A stretch of DNA of 30,785 nucleotides from an uncultured Anaerolineales bacterium (GCA_964397995.1 CAYNLG010000042.1:1-30785); one strand, 5' to 3'; positions 8,270 through 15,621 are shown, counted from the stretch's first letter. Notes: generated by a model not told the origin, from the letters alone. Made by a program: numbers and translations.

Positions 8270-8341
8270 GCCCCATGCGTCCGCGGTGCGCGGTGCGCGC
8301 GGCCGCGGGGTGCTGCGCGCACCGTGCCGGAAAGGGTCGCC

Positions 8342-9145
8342 GTGCTGGCCAAGCGGATCATTCCGTGCCTGGACGTGGAGGGGGGCCGCGTCGTCAAGGG
8401 CACGCGGTTCCTGGACCTGCGGGACGCGGGCGACCCGGTCGAGGTGGCCGCCCGGTACGACCGGGACGGCGCCGACGAGCTGGTCTTCCTGGACATCACG
8501 GCCAGCCACGAGGCGCGGGACATTTTGATTGACGTGGTGGCCCGGACGGCGGAGCAGTGTTTCATGCCGCTGACGGTGGGCGGGGGCGTGCGGACGCTCC
8601 AGGACATCCGGGCGCTGCTGAATGCCGGGGCGGACAAGGTCTCGATCAACTCGGCCGCGACGCGCGACCCGGACTTTGTGCGGCGGGCGGCCGAGCGGTT
8701 CGGCAGCCAGTGCATCGTCGTGGCGATCGACCCGAAGCGCGTCCGCGAGAACGGCCGCGAGGTCTGGCGCGTCCACATCAACGGCGGCCGCGTGCCGACC
8801 GACAAGGAGGCCGTCCCGTACGCCCGGGAGGTCGAGGGCCTCGGGGCCGGCGAGATTCTCCTGACGAGCATGGACGCCGACGGGACCCGCGACGGGTACG
8901 ACCTGGAGATGACGCGGGCCGTCGCGGACGCGGTGACGATTCCGGTGATCGCGAGCGGGGGGTGCGGGTCGCCCGCGCACTGCGTCGAGGTCCTGACCGA
9001 GGGCCGGGCGGACGCGGCGCTGGCGGCAAGCATCTTCCACTACGGCCTGCACCCGATTCCCGAGGTGAAGGCGGCACTGGCCGCGGCCGGGGTCCCGGTC
9101 CGCGAGCCCTGGGCCCCCGCCGGGGCAGAAGGGGCCGCGCCCTGA
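8342..9145 (+). CDS. hisF: Imidazole glycerol phosphate synthase cyclase subunit HisF
   Basis: [54 protein letters not shown] are canonical HisF motifs. GTG start at 8342 chosen so the N-terminus is [11 protein letters not shown]; the upstream GTG at 8324 is possible. Confidence 0.9.
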
Positions 9146-10251
9146 ACCTCGGCGACCCCAAGGCGACGCTGGCCGGCCTCCTGGATATCGCCCTCCTGGC
9201 CAAGGCCTCGGACCTGCACCTGAAACCCGGCCAGCCGCCCATCCTGCGGGTCGAGGGCGCGGTGCGGCCGACGGAGCGGCCGGCCCTGACGGCCGAGGAG
9301 GTCGAGGCCCTGGCCACGGCCTACCTGGACGCGCGGACGCGCGGCGACCTGGAGCGGTTCGGCGGGGCGGACCTGTCGCTGGACCTGCCGGGCGGCGACC
9401 GGTTCCGCCTCAGCGTCTACCGCGAGCGGAACAAGGTCAGCCTGGCGGCGCGGCGCGTCAACCGGGCCATCCCGACCTTCGAAGAGCTCCACCTGCCGGC
9501 CGAGGTGCTTGCTCCGGTGTGCGAGCGGCGGCAGGGGCTGGTGGTCTTCTGCGGGGCGACGGGGTGCGGCAAATCGACGAGCCTGGCCGCCTGCCTCGGC
9601 CACATCAACCGGACGCGCCGTTGCCACATCGTCACCATCGAGGACCCCATCGAGCACCTCTTCGAGGACGACCAGGCGTTCGTCAGCCAGCGCGAGATCG
9701 GCACCGACGTGACGGACTTCGACACGGCCCTGAAGAGCCTGATGCGGAGCGATCCGGACGTGGTCCTGGTGGGCGAGACGCGGGACCGCATCACCTGCGA
9801 GAGCGTTCTGCGGGCGACCGAGACGGGGCACCTCGTCTTTACGACCGTCCACGCCTCCAGCGCCCCCGGGGCGGTGGCCCGCGTGATGGACCTCTTCCCG
9901 GACGAGGTCCAGGAGACGGTCCGCGCGACGCTGGCCCAGAGCCTGGAGGCGGTGGTCTGCCAGCAGCTCGTCCCCTCGTGCCGCCAGGGCGTCGCCCAAG
10001 TGCCCGCGTGCGAGGTCATGCTGGCGACACCGGCGGTGCGGAAGGCCCTCCGCGAGGCCGACGAGACGTATCTGGGCGACTTGGTCGCGGGGGGCGGCGA
10101 CCTGGGGATGCGGAGCCTGACGCAGGACCTGGCCGCCCGCGTCAAGGACGGCTGGGTGGACAGCAAGACGGCGCAGGCGCTGGCGCCGCGGCCGGAAGCG
10201 CTCAAGATGGCCCTGAGAGGCATCCAGTTCAAAGAGGGAACGGTGCGATGA
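9142..10251 (+). CDS. pilT: Type IV pilus retraction ATPase PilT/PilU family (start codon uncertain)
   Basis: ASDLHL..G.PP.LRVEG N-domain. Walker [10 protein letters not shown]. Asp box and Walker [13 protein letters not shown]. His box [11 protein letters not shown]. Frame opens right at the hisF stop. No ATG/GTG/TTG occurs before the conserved N-terminus, so CTG at 9142 is used as a nominal start. Confidence 0.8.
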
Positions 10252-12023
10252 GCATGACGCGACGCGACGCGCGGCGCGGCCGGCCCGGCCGCGCGGCCGC
10301 GCGATGGGCCGCCCGGCTGGCGGCGGCGACGGCGGTGGCGGCGTGGGGGGTCCCGGCGGCGGCGTCGGGGTTCGAGCGGCCGAGGCTGGCCGACGCGGGG
10401 CAGTGGGGGGCCGGGCCGGTCCAGCTCGTCCTCGTCCTCCTCCTCGCCATGGCCGCCTTCCTCATGGTCAACTGGGCCCTGAAGGACATCCGCCGGGTGC
10501 GGACGGAGCCGGGGCGGTGGGCGGCCCTCGTGCTTGCCGGGGCGGTGCTCGGCCCGGCCACGGCGCTGCTCGTGCCGAGCTTCTACGCGGGCTTCCCGCT
10601 CGGCGTGGTCGTGACCGCCGGGGCCGGCTTCATCTACGCCCTCCACCGCAACGGCCAGGTCCCCGCCGCCCAGCGCGTCCTCACGGGCGCCCACGTCGAG
10701 CGGGTCAAGCGGCGGCTGCGCGGCGAGGCGGCGGAGGAGCCGACGCGCGGCCCGGTGATCGGCGTCGGCCGCGACATCATCTTCCTCGACCAGGCCGACC
10801 TGCCCATCAAGCTCGAGGCCCTCACCGACGCCGAACGCGAGGGCTACGAGCAGACCGAACGCGTCCTGTACGACGCCATCGTCCGCCAGTCTCAGATCGT
10901 CGGCGTCCTCGTCCGGCGCCAGGGCGCCCAGGTCCGGTTCCGGGCGGGCGGCCAGGTAATCGAGGGCGGCGACGTGGCGCACCCGGCGGCGGAGTTCCTG
11001 GCGGCGGGTCTGAAGCGGCTGGCGAACCTGAACCCCGCCGAGACCCGCAAGCCCCAGGAAGGCCGCTTCCGCGCCGTCGTCGCCGGCCAGACCTTCGAGT
11101 GCCGCGTCAAGACCGCCGGGTCGGTGCGCGGCGAGCAGGTGTCGGTCCGCATCATCGACCCCCTCACCAGCCGCATGGCCCTGGAGGACCTCGGCCTAAA
11201 TGCCGGGCAATTGGGGGCGGTGAAGGCGGCCCTGGAGGCCAAGCCCGGCATCGTGGTCGTCTCGAGCCCGAAGAACGGCGGCCTGACGACGACGCTGCAC
11301 GCCTGCCTCCGCCACTACGACCGGTACATGAACAACGTGGTCTGCTTCGATCCGCACGTGGACCTGGAGGTGGAGAGTGTGCGGCACGTGGGGCTGAACC
11401 AGGAGGAGGGGGAGGCGGCAGCGCGGCAGGTGCGGGAGGCGGTGCTGGCAGAGGCGGACGTGGTGGCGGTGGACTCGCTGTCGTCGCCAGAGGTGGGGCG
11501 CGTCCTTGCCGACGCCGCCGCCGACCGCCGCATCCTCATCGGCCTCCGCGCGAGCGACGCCGGCCAGGCCCTCGCGCGCGTCGCCCAGCTCCTGGGCGCG
11601 GCCGCGCCCCTGGCGGGGGCGCTCCGCCTCGTGGTGAACCAGCGCCTGGTCCGCCTGCTGTGCGACGAGTGCAAGGAAGGCTACCGGCCGAACCCGGAGT
11701 TCCTCCGCAAGGCCAACCTGGCCAGCCAGAAGGTGGACGTCCTCTACCGGCCGCCCAAGCTCCAGACCGACGAGAAGGGCCGCCCCGTCGTCTGCCCCGT
11801 CTGCCACAACGTCCGGTTCCGCGGACAGACGGGCCTTTTTGAGGTGATGGACGTGGATGAGGCGGCGCGGCAGCTGATCGGTGCCGGCGCGTCGGTGTCG
11901 GACGTGCGGACCCACGCCCGCAAGGGCGGCATGCGGAACCTCCAGGAGGAAGGGCTGCGGCTGGTGATCGAGGGCCGCACCGCCATCGAGGAAGTCCTCC
12001 GGGCCATCAAGCAGTCCCAGTAG
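10248..12023 (+). CDS. Membrane-anchored GspE/PilB-family secretion ATPase homolog with degenerate catalytic motifs (predicted pseudo-ATPase)
   Basis: ATG 10248 overlaps the pilT stop (ATGA), with AGAGGGAA RBS. Two N-terminal TM helices. GspE N2-domain signature PQEGRFR..ECRVKT...GEQVSVRIID. C-terminal tetracysteine CDEC..CPVC retained. Walker A reads SSPKNGGLTTT with no conserved Lys. Walker B region reads EADVVAVDSLSS with no catalytic Glu. The His box reads ADRRILIGLRASD with no His. Confidence 0.7.
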   Translation: MSMTRRDARRGRPGRAAARWAARLAAATAVAAWGVPAAASGFERPRLADAGQWGAGPVQLVLVLLLAMAAFLMVNWALKDIRRVRTEPGRWAALVLAGAVLGPATALLVPSFYAGFPLGVVVTAGAGFIYALHRNGQVPAAQRVLTGAHVERVKRRLRGEAAEEPTRGPVIGVGRDIIFLDQADLPIKLEALTDAEREGYEQTERVLYDAIVRQSQIVGVLVRRQGAQVRFRAGGQVIEGGDVAHPAAEFLAAGLKRLANLNPAETRKPQEGRFRAVVAGQTFECRVKTAGSVRGEQVSVRIIDPLTSRMALEDLGLNAGQLGAVKAALEAKPGIVVVSSPKNGGLTTTLHACLRHYDRYMNNVVCFDPHVDLEVESVRHVGLNQEEGEAAARQVREAVLAEADVVAVDSLSSPEVGRVLADAAADRRILIGLRASDAGQALARVAQLLGAAAPLAGALRLVVNQRLVRLLCDECKEGYRPNPEFLRKANLASQKVDVLYRPPKLQTDEKGRPVVCPVCHNVRFRGQTGLFEVMDVDEAARQLIGAGASVSDVRTHARKGGMRNLQEEGLRLVIEGRTAIEEVLRAIKQSQ

Positions 12024-12032
12024 GGGAGCGCT

Positions 12033-13367
12033 ATGCTGATCGTCAACGTCCTGGCCTTGGGGGCCACGCTGGCCGTCGCCTACCTGCTGAGCGGGCAGGG
12101 CCTGTACCGGGCGGCCCTGACGCTGGTGGCGTGCCTGGTGGCCCTGGCGGCCGCGTTCGGCCTGGCGGGCCCGGTCTCGGACATGATCGGGGCGGACCGG
12201 CCGGACACGAGCATGGGGTTCTCTGGCGATGCCCTGGCCCTGTGGGCCCTGTTCGCGGTCGTCTTCCTGGCCCTGCGCACCCTGGGCGACGTCTTTCTGC
12301 CGGAGGAGCCGGCCTTTCCGGACAGCGTCAAGCGCATCGGCGGGGGCGTCCTGGGCCTGCCGGTGGGGTACCTGTGCACGGGCCTGGCGCTGGTGCTGAT
12401 CCAGATGCTCCCCACCCCGCCGCGCGTCCTCGGCGGGTACGCCCCGTTCCGCCTGAAGAGCGTGATGCGGGCCGACGGTAGCCGCGTGACCGAGGTCCTG
12501 CCGGACGAGCCGCTCTGGCTGCAGTGGGACCGGGGGGTGCTGGTCCTGGCGCAGCAGATGACGGCGGCGCTGGGGGGCGACGAGGGCGGCTGGTTCGGGC
12601 GGTACGGGGACGTGTACCCGCCGGACGAGATGCGGGCCGCCCCCCCGGCGGCGGCGGAGGGCGAGGCCGGCGAAGAGGCGGCCGCGGCCCCGCGGGGCCG
12701 CGTGCGCCATCGCCTCGGCGAGGGCGAGGTGGACGTCAACGACGCCCTCTACTACCACTGGTACCGACGATGGGACTACATTCGGTGGCGCGTCGATCAG
12801 TATGACGGCCCCGTCCTGAGCGAGGCCGACCGCGAGGCCCGCCTGCCGGGGATGGGCCTGGCGCGCGGGCGGCGGGGCACGCTCGAGGGCCTCGACCTCC
12901 GCGTCGACAAGGCCTTCACGGAGCCCGCGCTGGCCCTGTTCGACGAACTCCGTCTCGACGAGAACCAGGAGCTGATGATCGTCGACCTGCGGTTCGAGCC
13001 CGACGAGGAAGTCTACACCTTCCCCGTCAAGGTCGAGAGCAAGCACTTCCTGCTGACGGGCCTTTCGGGCAAGCCCGTCTACGCCAACCCGTTCATCCGC
13101 CAGCGGGCGAAGCAGCGGCGCGGCGAAAAGGAGCTGATGCGGTCGCGGTCCGACCCGGACCTCGCGCCGGTGAACCTCCGCTACGGTTTCAAGGAGGAGA
13201 CGTCGCGCTACGGCGAAGGGCTGATGGACGCGGCCACGTGGACGTTCACCTCCGGCCGCCAGTCCGAGACGACGGACCTGATCTTCGTGGTGCCCAAGGG
13301 GACAGACCCGGACGAGCTTCGCCTGGATGTGGAGCAGGCCCCCGCCGGGGCCCCGGGGGGAGTTTAG
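12033..13367 (+). CDS. CvpA-family membrane protein fused to a ~290-aa C-terminal domain of unknown function
   Basis: ATG 12033 with GGGGAG RBS, 9 nt after the upstream stop. N-terminal 4-TM region resembles CvpA (MLIVNVLALGATLAVAYLL..., multiple helices to ~aa 150). The remainder is soluble and unrecognised (W/Y/R-rich YYHWYRRWDYIRWRVDQYDG segment). Confidence 0.6.
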   Translation: MLIVNVLALGATLAVAYLLSGQGLYRAALTLVACLVALAAAFGLAGPVSDMIGADRPDTSMGFSGDALALWALFAVVFLALRTLGDVFLPEEPAFPDSVKRIGGGVLGLPVGYLCTGLALVLIQMLPTPPRVLGGYAPFRLKSVMRADGSRVTEVLPDEPLWLQWDRGVLVLAQQMTAALGGDEGGWFGRYGDVYPPDEMRAAPPAAAEGEAGEEAAAAPRGRVRHRLGEGEVDVNDALYYHWYRRWDYIRWRVDQYDGPVLSEADREARLPGMGLARGRRGTLEGLDLRVDKAFTEPALALFDELRLDENQELMIVDLRFEPDEEVYTFPVKVESKHFLLTGLSGKPVYANPFIRQRAKQRRGEKELMRSRSDPDLAPVNLRYGFKEETSRYGEGLMDAATWTFTSGRQSETTDLIFVVPKGTDPDELRLDVEQAPAGAPGGV

Positions 13368-13401
13368 TATCCTGTCCCCGAAACTCGACGGAGGAGAGCC
13401 G

Positions 13402-14055
13402 ATGATCCAGTGGTGGAACGGCCTGACCGTCCTGAACCAGGTCTTCTTCGGGGTGGCGGGGTTCTTTACGCTGATCTTCCTGTACCAGGCGATCATGACG
13501 CTGATCGGCCTGGCGGGCTCGGGCGGCGACGCCGAGATGGGCGAGGGCGACTTCGCCGTCGATGCCGACGCCGCCGACGCCGACCTGGACGTGGCCGCCG
13601 ACGCCGGCGAGGTCGACGCCGAGGCCGCCGCCGACCAGGTCACCGGCACCAGCTTCCGGCTCTTCTCGTTCCGGTCGATCGTCGCCTTCGGCATGATGTT
13701 CGGCTGGGCGGGCGGCCTGTACATGCACGAGGGCACCCCCGCCGGCCGCGCCATCATCTACGCCCTCCTCTGGGCCGCCGCCGGCGCCCTGGTGGTGTCG
13801 CTGCTGCTGTACCTGATGCGGCGAATGACTGAGACGGGGACGCCGGTGCTGGCGAGCTGTGTCGGCCGGCCCGCGACGGTCTACATGAACATCCCGGCCA
13901 AGGGGGCCGGGCAGGTCCGCACGGTCGTCTCGGGGGCGGTCAGCCACGTGCCCGCCCGGTCGGCGGGTGGCAAGGCGCTCGAGGCGGGGACGCCCGTCCG
14001 CGTTCGCCGCCTCCTCGACCCGCACACCGTCGAGGTCGAGAGGCTCGACGCCTGA
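13402..14055 (+). CDS. NfeD-family membrane protein (short YuaF-like form) with acidic low-complexity insert
   Basis: ATG 13402 with GGAGGAG RBS. TM helix, a D/A/E-rich insert, two more TM helices, and a C-terminal OB-fold-like segment (GRPATVYMNIPAKGAGQVRTVVSGAVSHVPARSAGGKALEAGTPVRVRRL) typical of NfeD. Immediately upstream of flotillin, as in yuaF-floT operons. Confidence 0.7.
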   Translation: MIQWWNGLTVLNQVFFGVAGFFTLIFLYQAIMTLIGLAGSGGDAEMGEGDFAVDADAADADLDVAADAGEVDAEAAADQVTGTSFRLFSFRSIVAFGMMFGWAGGLYMHEGTPAGRAIIYALLWAAAGALVVSLLLYLMRRMTETGTPVLASCVGRPATVYMNIPAKGAGQVRTVVSGAVSHVPARSAGGKALEAGTPVRVRRLLDPHTVEVERLDA

Positions 14056-14088
14056 TCCCTGGTGCCGCACCCAGCAAAGGAGACGCGC

Positions 14089-15621
14089 ATGGCTTCGGTT
14101 CCGGCGGTTGTGACGGCGATGGCGGTGCCCGGCATGGACGACGGGTTCCCGACCGGCCTTGTCCTACTGGTCCTGCTGCTGGTCATCGTCCTGTTCCTCT
14201 TGATCTTCATCGCGCGGGTCTACCGTCGGTGCCCGTCGAACAAGGTGCTCGTCATCTACGGGAAGACGGGGAAGGGGGCGGCCAAGTGCATCCACGGGGG
14301 GGCGGCCATCGTGTGGCCGCTTATCCAGGCCTGCCGGTATCTGGACCTGGAGCCGTTCGTGGTGCCGATCGACCTGAAGTCGGCCCTGTCGCAGGAAAAC
14401 ATCCGCGTGTCGGTGCCGACGACCGTGACGGCGGCCATCTCGAACGAGCCGGCCCTGATGACCAACGCGGCCTACCGCCTCCTGGCGATGAGCCGCGAGG
14501 AGATCGAGCGCCAGGCCGAGGACATCATCCTCGGGCAGATGCGTGCGGTCATCGCGACGATGAAGATCGAGGAGATCAACCGCGACCGGCAGGCCTTCAT
14601 GAGCAAGGTCAACGAGGCGGTCTCGGGCGAGCTCGAGAAGATCGGCCTGGCGGTCATCAACGTCAACATCAAGGACATCACGGACGAGAGCGGCTACATC
14701 GAGGCCATCGGCCGCAAGGCCGCCGCCGAGGTCATCAACCAGGCCGAGATCGACGTGGCCGAGCAGGAACGGCGCGGCAAGACGGGCGTGGCGGAGCGGG
14801 AGCGTGATCGGCGCAAGGCCGTGTCGGCCGCCAACGCCGAGGCCACCATCGGCGAGGCCAGCGCCGACCGCGACCGCCGCCGCCAGGTTGCCGGCCTCGA
14901 CGCCGAGGCCGTCGAAGCCGAGGCCGTCGCGAACGCCAAGAAGGCCCAGTACGTGGCGGGCCAGCGGGTGGCGGAGCAGGAGGCGCGCGAGAAGAGCGAG
15001 TCGGCCTCCCGCGAGGCCGACGGCGGCATCCGCGTGGCCGAGGAGAACGCCCAGCGCGAGGCCGAGCTCGCCCGGGCCCAGCGCGAGGAGGCCCGCCTCC
15101 GGGCCGAGCGCATCGTCCCGGCCGAGGCCGAGCGCGAGCAGATCGTCATCCAGTCCGACGCCGAGAAGCAGAAACGCCAGCTCGTGGCCGAGGGCGAGGC
15201 CAACGCCGTCCTCGCTCGCATGCGGGCCGAGGCCGAGGGCACCCAGGCCGTCCTCCAAGCCAAGGCCGACGGCTACCGGGCCCTGGTCGAGGGCGCGGCC
15301 CGCGACCCGAAGGCGGCCGCCAGCCTGCTGATCATCGAGAAGTTCGAGGCGATCGCCCGGGTCCAGGCCCAGGCGATCCAGAACCTGCCGCTGGAGAAGG
15401 TCATCGTCTGGGACGGGGGCTCCGGGGCCGGCGGCGACGGGGGTCTGGCGGGCCTCGGCCGCCGCCTCATGGGCACCCTCCCGCCGATGCACCACCTGGC
15501 CAGCATGGTGGGCCTGGATCTGCCGGACTACCTGGGCAGCGTGCACGGGAGCGGGAGCGGCGGAAGCCATCCGCCCGCGCCGCCGGCGCCTCGCCGCGAC
15601 ACGCCGGAGGGCGGGGCCTGA
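14089..15621 (+). CDS. Flotillin-family SPFH-domain protein (FloT/YuaG-like)
   Basis: ATG 14089 with AAGGAG RBS. N-terminal TM helix. SPFH domain (VLVIYGKTGKG..IVWPLIQ..LDLEP). Long E/A/R-rich coiled-coil region. Gly-rich C-terminus. Confidence 0.85.
   Translation: MASVPAVVTAMAVPGMDDGFPTGLVLLVLLLVIVLFLLIFIARVYRRCPSNKVLVIYGKTGKGAAKCIHGGAAIVWPLIQACRYLDLEPFVVPIDLKSALSQENIRVSVPTTVTAAISNEPALMTNAAYRLLAMSREEIERQAEDIILGQMRAVIATMKIEEINRDRQAFMSKVNEAVSGELEKIGLAVINVNIKDITDESGYIEAIGRKAAAEVINQAEIDVAEQERRGKTGVAERERDRRKAVSAANAEATIGEASADRDRRRQVAGLDAEAVEAEAVANAKKAQYVAGQRVAEQEAREKSESASREADGGIRVAEENAQREAELARAQREEARLRAERIVPAEAEREQIVIQSDAEKQKRQLVAEGEANAVLARMRAEAEGTQAVLQAKADGYRALVEGAARDPKAAASLLIIEKFEAIARVQAQAIQNLPLEKVIVWDGGSGAGGDGGLAGLGRRLMGTLPPMHHLASMVGLDLPDYLGSVHGSGSGGSHPPAPPAPRRDTPEGGA

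Follow-up and report, generated by a model that had tools for sequence, protein, structure and literature searches.

The stretch of DNA considered here, referred to as the window, is 30,785 nucleotides long and was deposited as part of a genome of an uncultured Anaerolineales bacterium (GCA_964397995.1, CAYNLG010000042.1:1-30785). On its plus strand it carries, directly after one another, the genes for a PilT/PilU-family ATPase, for a membrane-anchored relative of the PilB and GspE ATPases, which we call psGspE, and for a membrane protein that probably belongs to the CvpA (colicin V production protein) family. The three genes and the main features of psGspE are listed in Table 1. psGspE has the fold of the type II/IV secretion ATPases and appears to be a pseudoenzyme; the module formed by the three genes is ancient within the Planctomycetota.

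Table 1. Positions of the three-gene module, the preceding hisF gene and the features of psGspE (nucleotides counted from the first letter of the window; residues are those of psGspE).
Feature	Nucleotides	Strand	Residues	Remarks
hisF	8324..9145	+		Imidazole glycerol phosphate synthase cyclase subunit; Pfam His_biosynth E=5e-82
PilT/PilU-family hexameric ATPase gene	9142..10251	+		TIGR01420; motifs canonical; start codon uncertain
psGspE	10248..12023	+	591 in all	Membrane-anchored, PilB/GspE-like predicted pseudo-ATPase
N-terminal hydrophobic, Ala-rich segment	10287..10361	+	14-38	Signal peptide or fourth transmembrane helix
Three-helix membrane anchor	10410..10652	+	55-84, 88-108, 112-135	Predicted by hydropathy and AlphaFold2 (confidence score about 90)
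N2D domain	10857..11177	+	204-310	By alignment to T. thermophilus PilF
Walker A/P-loop SSPKNGGLTTT, degenerate	11262..11294	+	339-349	Canonical GPTGSGK[ST] replaced by SPKNGGLT; Lys replaced by Leu346
Asp box CFDPHVDLEV, altered	11343..11372	+	366-375	Canonical TIEDPVEYxL; IEDPVE replaced by FDPHVD
Walker B EADVVAVDSLSS, degenerate	11451..11486	+	402-413	Canonical VGE[IM]RD replaced by VDSLSS
His box ADRRILIGLRASD, degenerate	11520..11558	+	425-437	Canonical GHxV..T[LV]HTND replaced by RRIL..GLRASD
Tetracysteine Zn-binding motif CDEC...CPVC, intact	11661..11804	+	C472, C475, C516, C519	Typical of the PilB/GspE clade
Putative CvpA-family membrane protein gene	12033..13367	+		444 residues; starts nine bases after the psGspE stop

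The reading frame of psGspE matches those of the neighbouring genes in its G+C content by codon position (0.78/0.48/0.96). With 73% G+C in the window, long antisense and out-of-frame open reading frames (ORFs) are plentiful. Two antisense ORFs, at 9417..10982 and 11196..13757, were dismissed as high-GC artefacts; the plus frame has a third-position G+C (GC3) of 0.96 and holds all of the homology.

psGspE is a member of the type II/IV secretion ATPase superfamily, with the N2D and CTD fold. The Pfam family T2SSE (PF00437) matches residues 204-585 with E=3.4e-49 (167.9 bits against a gathering cutoff of 24.9), and the best relatives of solved structure in the PDB are Thermus PilF, Vibrio GspE/EpsE and the PilB proteins of Geobacter and Myxococcus (E=1e-41 to 1e-35). 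The family assignment made in a preliminary description of this DNA is borne out by these matches, and the motif strings quoted there are all found in the translation of the plus-strand ORF. The scores against the NCBIfam equivalog models for GspE (TIGR02533, 179.2 bits, cutoff 630.25) and PilB (TIGR02538, 177.6 bits, cutoff 675.65) lie far below their cutoffs, placing psGspE within the superfamily but not as an orthologue of a working GspE or PilB. An AlphaFold2 model, built from an alignment of 27 orthologues, has a mean predicted local distance difference test score (pLDDT) of 77 and superposes on the PilB structure 5tsh with a Foldseek E-value of 5e-31 and a template modelling (TM) score of 0.84; the pLDDT falls below 50 at residues 343-347 of the P-loop and at residues 370-379. 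The arginine motif of N2D, ETRKPQEGR, is intact (residues 265-273, nucleotides 11040-11066, overlapping the string PQEGRFR at 269-275), and the C-terminal helices of PilB/GspE are retained. The segment LVVNQRLVRLLCDEC lies at residues 461-475 and the CPVC half of the tetracysteine site at residues 516-519; since it has this zinc motif, psGspE descends from the PilB/GspE clade and not from PilT.

The catalytic motifs were placed in register by HMMER alignment to Thermus thermophilus PilF and by MAFFT alignments with canonical GspE proteins, all of which agree. In the P-loop the Walker A lysine is gone and a new basic residue, K342, stands at position 3. The Gly-Glu pair of Walker B corresponds to Asp409-Ser410 in psGspE (VVAVDS), so that the catalytic glutamate is replaced by serine, and both histidines of the His box are replaced by arginine (RRILIGLRASD). 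The Asp box (ExDPxE) is also altered; its first acidic residue alone is kept, both in psGspE (FDPHVD) and in its orthologues (FEPHVD). Neither the HMMER nor the MAFFT alignments offered an alternative register that would restore the lysine, the glutamate or a histidine.

These substitutions are shared by the orthologues of psGspE. A search of 5.8 billion proteins yielded 86 further clusters, giving an orthologue set of 87 with psGspE itself; the 86 are 47-63% identical to it and, where named, are labelled Planctomycetota or Phycisphaerae. Below them the score drops from 434 to 147 bits, after which ordinary GspE proteins follow. At least 550 residues are present in 75 of the 87 clusters, most having 560-640, and the shorter ones come mostly from contigs of 1-4 kb. 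The position of the Walker A lysine (346) is leucine in 84 of 86 clusters and valine in two, and is lysine in none; position 342 is lysine in 64, arginine in 12 and glutamine in 9, hence basic in 76 of 86. G345 and T349 are invariant. At Walker B, aspartate occupies position 409 in all 87 clusters, and position 410 is serine in 64 and alanine in 21, with glutamate in none of the 87. The second histidine of the His box is an arginine (R434) in 87/87 clusters and is followed by A435 in 86/87. The Asp box has the consensus FEPHVDLEV, with glutamate at position 368 in 83/87. All four zinc-site cysteines are present throughout (87/87), as are R267 and Q270 of N2D, and R273 is found in 85/87. psGspE itself is slightly atypical, having S340, G344 and D368 where most clusters have Gly or Ala, Ser and Glu, respectively. 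The remodelled P-loop and the helix that follows it form the most conserved stretch of the family (0.87-0.93 against an overall mean of 0.66). With the same substitutions fixed across clusters and the P-loop the best-conserved part, the degeneracy represents a fixed, selected state. Judged by its sequence, psGspE is a conserved pseudoenzyme under purifying selection, in which the catalytic residues have been lost and the protein maintained.

Nine further records (L005, L008, L009, L014, L015, L016, L019, L033 and L038) carry clear orthologues of the Phycisphaerae-type cassette and are likewise titled 'uncultured Anaerolineales bacterium'. The titles of these third-party records of metagenome-assembled genomes are probably a taxonomic mislabel.

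The N-terminal part of psGspE is unlike that of PilB and GspE. Pfam and NCBIfam scans found no family covering residues 1-200 and no N1 or MshEN domain before residue 199. The membrane anchoring proposed previously stands, but the count of two helices does not: hydropathy and the AlphaFold2 model point to three confidently predicted transmembrane helices preceded by a signal-like segment. Ten residues of the anchor are invariant in the family (W76, D80, V84, W91, P110, G115, G119, Y130, R134 and N135), and the loop between the first and second helices is basic (KDIRRVR) and predicted to be cytoplasmic. The family also conserves a linker, DIIFxGxDDLP, and an invariant loop assigned to the cytoplasm, NWxFxDxRFV. 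The preceding hydrophobic segment comes after an n-region rich in Arg and has AAASG at its end; it is modelled as a helix (residues 14-31) with low confidence, and its sequence is weakly conserved between orthologues. Whether it is read as a signal peptide or as a fourth helix, the model would place the ATPase-like domain in the cytoplasm.

The anchor defines a family that extends well beyond the orthologues. A profile of the anchor and linker (residues 52-205), searched against 1.84 billion representatives with clustering at 50% identity, detected 382 clusters at E<=1e-3, 109 of which reach E<=1e-10, and many of the clusters are full-length proteins of 540-610 residues. The motifs were surveyed in 47 sampled full-length members and in eight more from inspected loci. 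Nearly all of the sampled full-length members are degenerate, with a pattern that differs by lineage, and few are canonical: the lysine position is occupied by L, V, R, T, I, F, A, Q, S or Y, the glutamate of Walker B and the His box are mostly lost, and the tetracysteine motif is almost always kept. GK[ST] is retained in P0164, P0168, P0195 and P0250. The fully canonical members (GPTGAGKSTT, GEIRD and GHMVFSTVHAND) are confined to four Planctomycetaceae loci, L024:5605-7587, L025:3910-5763, L026:1136-3100 and L028:5740-7596, and may, from their motifs, be still-active relatives of the family. No CvpA gene adjoins them; the next gene encodes a DUF6793 protein in L024 and L026 (PF20593, 190 bits) and a HEAT-repeat protein in L028. 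In a rough neighbour-joining tree of the superfamily, canonical or semi-canonical members (L024, L025, P0168 and P0195) lie near the bases of sub-clades. This topology, which is not relied on, fits an active, membrane-anchored ancestor and repeated loss of activity. For ten distant relatives, a cluster look-up returned hardly any names except 'Planctomycetota' and general GspE/PilB labels. The Pirellulales branch alone comprises more than 650 clusters at 90% identity, whose NCBI labels read 'Flp pilus assembly complex ATPase component TadA' or 'ATPase, T2SS/T4P/T4SS family'.

Another type of apparent pseudo-ATPase also occurs in the phylum. Two shorter GspE-like proteins of 440-450 residues from Planctomycetaceae (L034:5842-7164 and L049:5884-7236) do not match the anchor region and have a different degenerate set of motifs, GPPYSGTTTT, LDPLRD and TAKDA.

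The gene upstream of psGspE encodes a canonical PilT-family protein, with 347 bits against TIGR01420 (pilT_fam, cutoff 319.1) and E=1.8e-75 against the PilT structure 5fl3, to which GATGCGKST, IEDPIE, VGETRD and the His box could be aligned. The intact state of this neighbour, originally given as the reason for excluding assembly noise, holds. Its stop codon (TGA, 10249-10251) overlaps the psGspE start (ATG, 10248-10250) in a 4-bp ATGA, an arrangement shared by 13 of the 16 orthologous loci, two others having a 1-bp overlap; this conservation argues for translational coupling of the two genes. An exact look-up of the psGspE sequence returned no record, so the gene order was read from orthologues. 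The pilT-like gene lies immediately upstream of psGspE in 17 of the 20 orthologous loci that could be tested.

The start of the pilT-like gene is less clear. Its orthologues begin with an ATG that precedes the aligned N-terminus by 5-10 codons, and in the region concerned, at 9100-9270, no ATG, GTG or TTG stands at the expected place. The nearest canonical starts are a GTG at 8962, 60 codons upstream and inside hisF, and a GTG at 9262, whose use would drop 40 conserved residues. A non-canonical start at CTG 9142, which shares bases with the hisF stop codon (TGA, 9143-9145), is one candidate; alternatively, the assembly may be in error here. In most Phycisphaerae loci, and in five loci of Planctomycetia or Pirellulales (L022, L027, L047, L048 and L050), hisF comes directly before the pilT-like gene and psGspE; it probably plays no functional part in the module.

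The gene downstream of psGspE is its most tightly linked partner, a cvpA-like gene being found there in 20 of the 20 testable orthologous loci. The encoded protein scores 24.7 bits against Colicin_V (PF02674), below the cutoff of 29.3; a precomputed match to PF02674 exists for 15/15 of its orthologues, and distant syntenic partners reach 30.7-43 bits. Its AlphaFold2 model (pLDDT 81) has four transmembrane helices and a C-terminal beta-sandwich, for which a fold search returned only weak matches to beta-sandwich lipoproteins (YcdA 4r4g, E=4e-3; YcdA/YjhA domains), uninformative on function. Outside the CvpA domain the family conserves the motifs YGDVYPP and DDxLYYHWYRRW, and a Pro-rich tail is frequent. 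The Pirellulales versions have 209-236 residues and are without these additional motifs and domains.

The linkage also holds at a distance. In Planctomycetia and Pirellulales, relatives with 26-33% identity show the order hisF, pilT-like, anchored GspE-like and cvpA, which is found as well in a complete 8.76-Mb Pirellulales-type genome (L050); cvpA-like genes adjoin the anchored GspE-like genes in L022, L030, L032, L047, L048 and L050. In one protein, P0228 (757 residues), an N-terminal CvpA domain (Colicin_V 33.6 bits, exceeding the cutoff), a three-helix anchor and a degenerate GspE-like domain (T2SSE 134 bits) are naturally fused, which provides a Rosetta-stone link between the CvpA and psGspE families.

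The window also holds housekeeping genes, which encode a flavodoxin-like protein, a radical SAM protein, NIF3, HisF, XseA, RNase R, a sulfatase, L31, Dxr and RseP. Genes for pilins, PilC/GspF (T2SSF), PilM-Q or secretins were found neither in the window nor in the inspected flanks of the other loci. Beyond the cvpA-like gene, the region 13327-15621 contains a membrane ORF of 242 residues, in an NfeD-like position and without a Pfam or NCBIfam match, and a flotillin/SPFH (Band_7) protein (PF01145, E=1.7e-29) with a weak match to FloT. This pair is particular to the window; TldD/PmbA genes occupy the place in other orthologous loci.

We lean, with moderate confidence, towards a role of psGspE as a non-catalytic membrane adaptor that couples the active PilT-family motor to the CvpA-family protein. 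It had been suggested earlier that a protein of this kind serves as a regulator or stator of an active hexameric ATPase; the synteny, the ATGA overlap and the CvpA fusion point that way, short of proof. The probable course of events is that a PilB/GspE-type assembly ATPase exchanged its soluble N-terminal domain for the three-helix anchor, lost ATP hydrolysis and was retained as a structural subunit. psGspE would now form a ring, or part of one, at the cytoplasmic face of the inner membrane. There it would serve as a fixed adaptor ('stator') that docks the catalytically intact and co-translated PilT-family ATPase and contacts its CvpA-family neighbour within the membrane. The ATP-driven movements of PilT would then be passed through psGspE to the membrane partner, energy presumably flowing in that direction.

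Several observations weigh against this proposal. The physical PilT-psGspE-CvpA complex, its contacts and the cellular process that it would serve are inferred, as is the oligomeric state of psGspE. In three of the 20 testable loci (L006, L013 and L015), psGspE and the cvpA-like gene occur without an adjacent pilT-like gene, hisF directly preceding psGspE in L013 and L015, so that PilT may not be obligatory or may be encoded elsewhere. The conserved linkage to hisF, moreover, shows that long-term synteny in this phylum is possible without functional coupling. The view is of 30 kb of genome, and a conventional type IV pilus (T4P) or type II secretion system (T2SS) machine encoded elsewhere may be linked to the module. 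Finally, the glycine and threonine residues of the P-loop, the N2D arginines and the new invariant aspartate of Walker B are conserved, which means that ligand binding could matter and that psGspE could be a regulator rather than a passive scaffold. As a speculation, the conserved residues of the old active site could instead be paired in internal salt bridges and so imitate one of the nucleotide states.

The last of these points leads to a possible, if somewhat doubtful, alternative, in which psGspE is a sensor or switch whose remodelled site binds ATP, ADP or another anionic ligand without hydrolysis and regulates PilT or CvpA according to its ligand state; FlaH/ArlH of the archaellum, which binds ATP but does not turn it over, offers a parallel. 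This alternative overlaps with the adaptor proposal, the difference being whether ligand binding matters. Conservation in the family is highest around the P-loop; G345, T347-T349 and the arginines R267 and R273 of N2D are retained, as are, in the proportions given above, the basic residue at P-loop position 3 (76/86 clusters) and the first glutamate of the Asp box (83/87), and the invariant aspartate at Walker B resembles the Mg2+ ligand of a classical hhhhD motif. Loss of the Walker A lysine, however, normally abolishes tight nucleotide binding. In the wider family the residue at this position varies without a consistent compensating residue, and AlphaFold2 is unsure of the P-loop itself (pLDDT <50 at residues 343-347). 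The same K342, together with the invariance of D409, could be taken to mean that psGspE is a working ATPase with non-canonical residues, the relocated lysine standing in for that of Walker A as in the WNK kinases. We consider this very improbable, for the catalytic glutamate has become Ser or Ala, neither histidine survives and the Asp box has changed, all at the same time; position 342 is glutamine in 9 clusters, and an equivalent basic residue is missing from the other lineages of the superfamily.

It is unlikely, in our estimate, that psGspE is an accessory of a conventional T4P or T2SS encoded elsewhere, a membrane-fixed dock that recruits PilT to the basal body and controls retraction, replacing or complementing tethers of the PilM/GspL type. 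Its descent from the PilB/GspE clade and its pairing with a bona fide PilT-family gene would suit such a part, and a covalent anchor would be a plausible substitute for GspL, which normally tethers GspE to the membrane. Set against this, no pilin, PilC/GspF, PilM/N/O or secretin gene lies near the cassette in any inspected locus, the neighbourhood is one of housekeeping genes (hisF, dxr, rseP), and the one constant partner is CvpA-like, CvpA proteins not being known as components of pili. The reading as a decaying pseudogene or an assembly artefact is rejected. The loss of the motifs is all that speaks for it; the ORF of 591 codons is intact with the GC3 of a coding sequence, the synteny and the start/stop overlap are both conserved, and an identical pattern of substitutions recurs in 87 orthologue clusters, 75 of them of at least 550 residues. 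The preliminary description had excluded noise on the strength of the neighbouring pilT, and the orthologues, with fixed substitutions in place of random decay, lead to the same answer.

If the adaptor proposal is extended beyond the single protein, PilT, the membrane-anchored pseudo-PilB and CvpA might together constitute an unrecognised, phylum-wide, PilT-powered inner-membrane machine of the Planctomycetota that is independent of pili and type II secretion and serves, for example, envelope or membrane homeostasis or transport; we put this forward tentatively. If true, it would be the first case in which an ATPase of the secretion superfamily has become an integral-membrane stator, and it would provide the first mechanistic context for the CvpA family. 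In the usual view, PilB, GspE and PilT are soluble hexamers with catalytic activity, which other proteins recruit to the membrane. Here a PilB/GspE scaffold appears to have been fixed to the membrane and catalytically silenced repeatedly, yet is strictly conserved beside an active PilT, which makes it a natural test of the functions that the PilB scaffold has besides ATP hydrolysis. The module points to a function of PilT beyond classical pilus retraction and connects the little-understood CvpA family with a partner driven by ATP. There is a practical side as well: the public labels naming these proteins TadA or T2SS/T4P/T4SS ATPases would mislead inferences on piliation, secretion, metabolism and phenotype drawn from planctomycetotal genomes.

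In a full-text search of the literature, which does not prove absence, we found no account of PilB/GspE paralogues that are degenerate by nature or anchored in the membrane, of this module or of a link between PilT and CvpA. In a 2024 review of PilB (PMC11656802), the only such cases are engineered Walker mutants and degenerate GGDEF domains.

Compared with PilB and GspE themselves, psGspE shares the N2D and CTD fold, the N2D arginine motif, the tetracysteine zinc site and the C-terminal helices. It differs in lacking the Walker A lysine, the Walker B glutamate and the His-box histidines, in its altered Asp box, and in having a three-helix anchor in place of an N1, MshEN or GspL-binding domain, the soluble N-terminal part through which the working ATPases bind GspL/PilM or c-di-GMP; its gene is also not associated with a PilC/GspF platform or with pilins. 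In the classical systems GspL holds GspE at the membrane and GspE engages the GspF/PilC platform, whereas the tether of psGspE is covalent and its sole constant membrane partner is CvpA. That partner appears to share with the CvpA family the four-helix membrane domain (PF02674). Enterobacterial cvpA sits with purF and is not known to be linked with secretion ATPases, its phenotype in enterobacteria being sensitivity to detergent and bile salts; the version found in Phycisphaerae differs from the family in an extra domain of about 300 residues, which ends in the beta-sandwich.

Functional parallels can be drawn with other pairs of proteins. TadZ/CpaE of the Tad pili and the cytoplasmic domains of GspL and PilM have NTPase or actin folds with impaired catalysis and position or tether a secretion ATPase at the membrane; their folds are different (MinD/ParA-like or actin-like) and they are separate tether proteins, whereas psGspE carries a fused anchor. 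In the archaellum, FlaH/ArlH is a P-loop-fold protein that does not hydrolyse ATP and stands at the membrane beside an active ATPase of the secretion superfamily, FlaI/ArlI. FlaH/ArlH is RecA/KaiC-like and soluble, and binds ATP without turnover; its homology to psGspE does not go beyond the P-loop fold. The PilT/PilU pairs, in which PilU depends on PilT, resemble the present case in that paralogous proteins of the secretion-ATPase fold are encoded side by side and presumably cooperate, and in Vibrio a catalytically dead PilT still supports function by way of PilU (PMC11656802). psGspE differs from them in being, to all appearance, naturally and permanently inactive, in belonging to the PilB/GspE clade, as its zinc motif indicates, and in being an integral membrane protein. 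None of these closest functional analogies, PilT/PilU, FlaH/FlaI, TadZ or the GspL/PilM tethers, is homologous in architecture to the psGspE module; psGspE and its neighbours are best seen as a new and sizeable subfamily, and a new gene module, of the secretion-ATPase superfamily, with a proposed function deduced from sequence, structure prediction and synteny.

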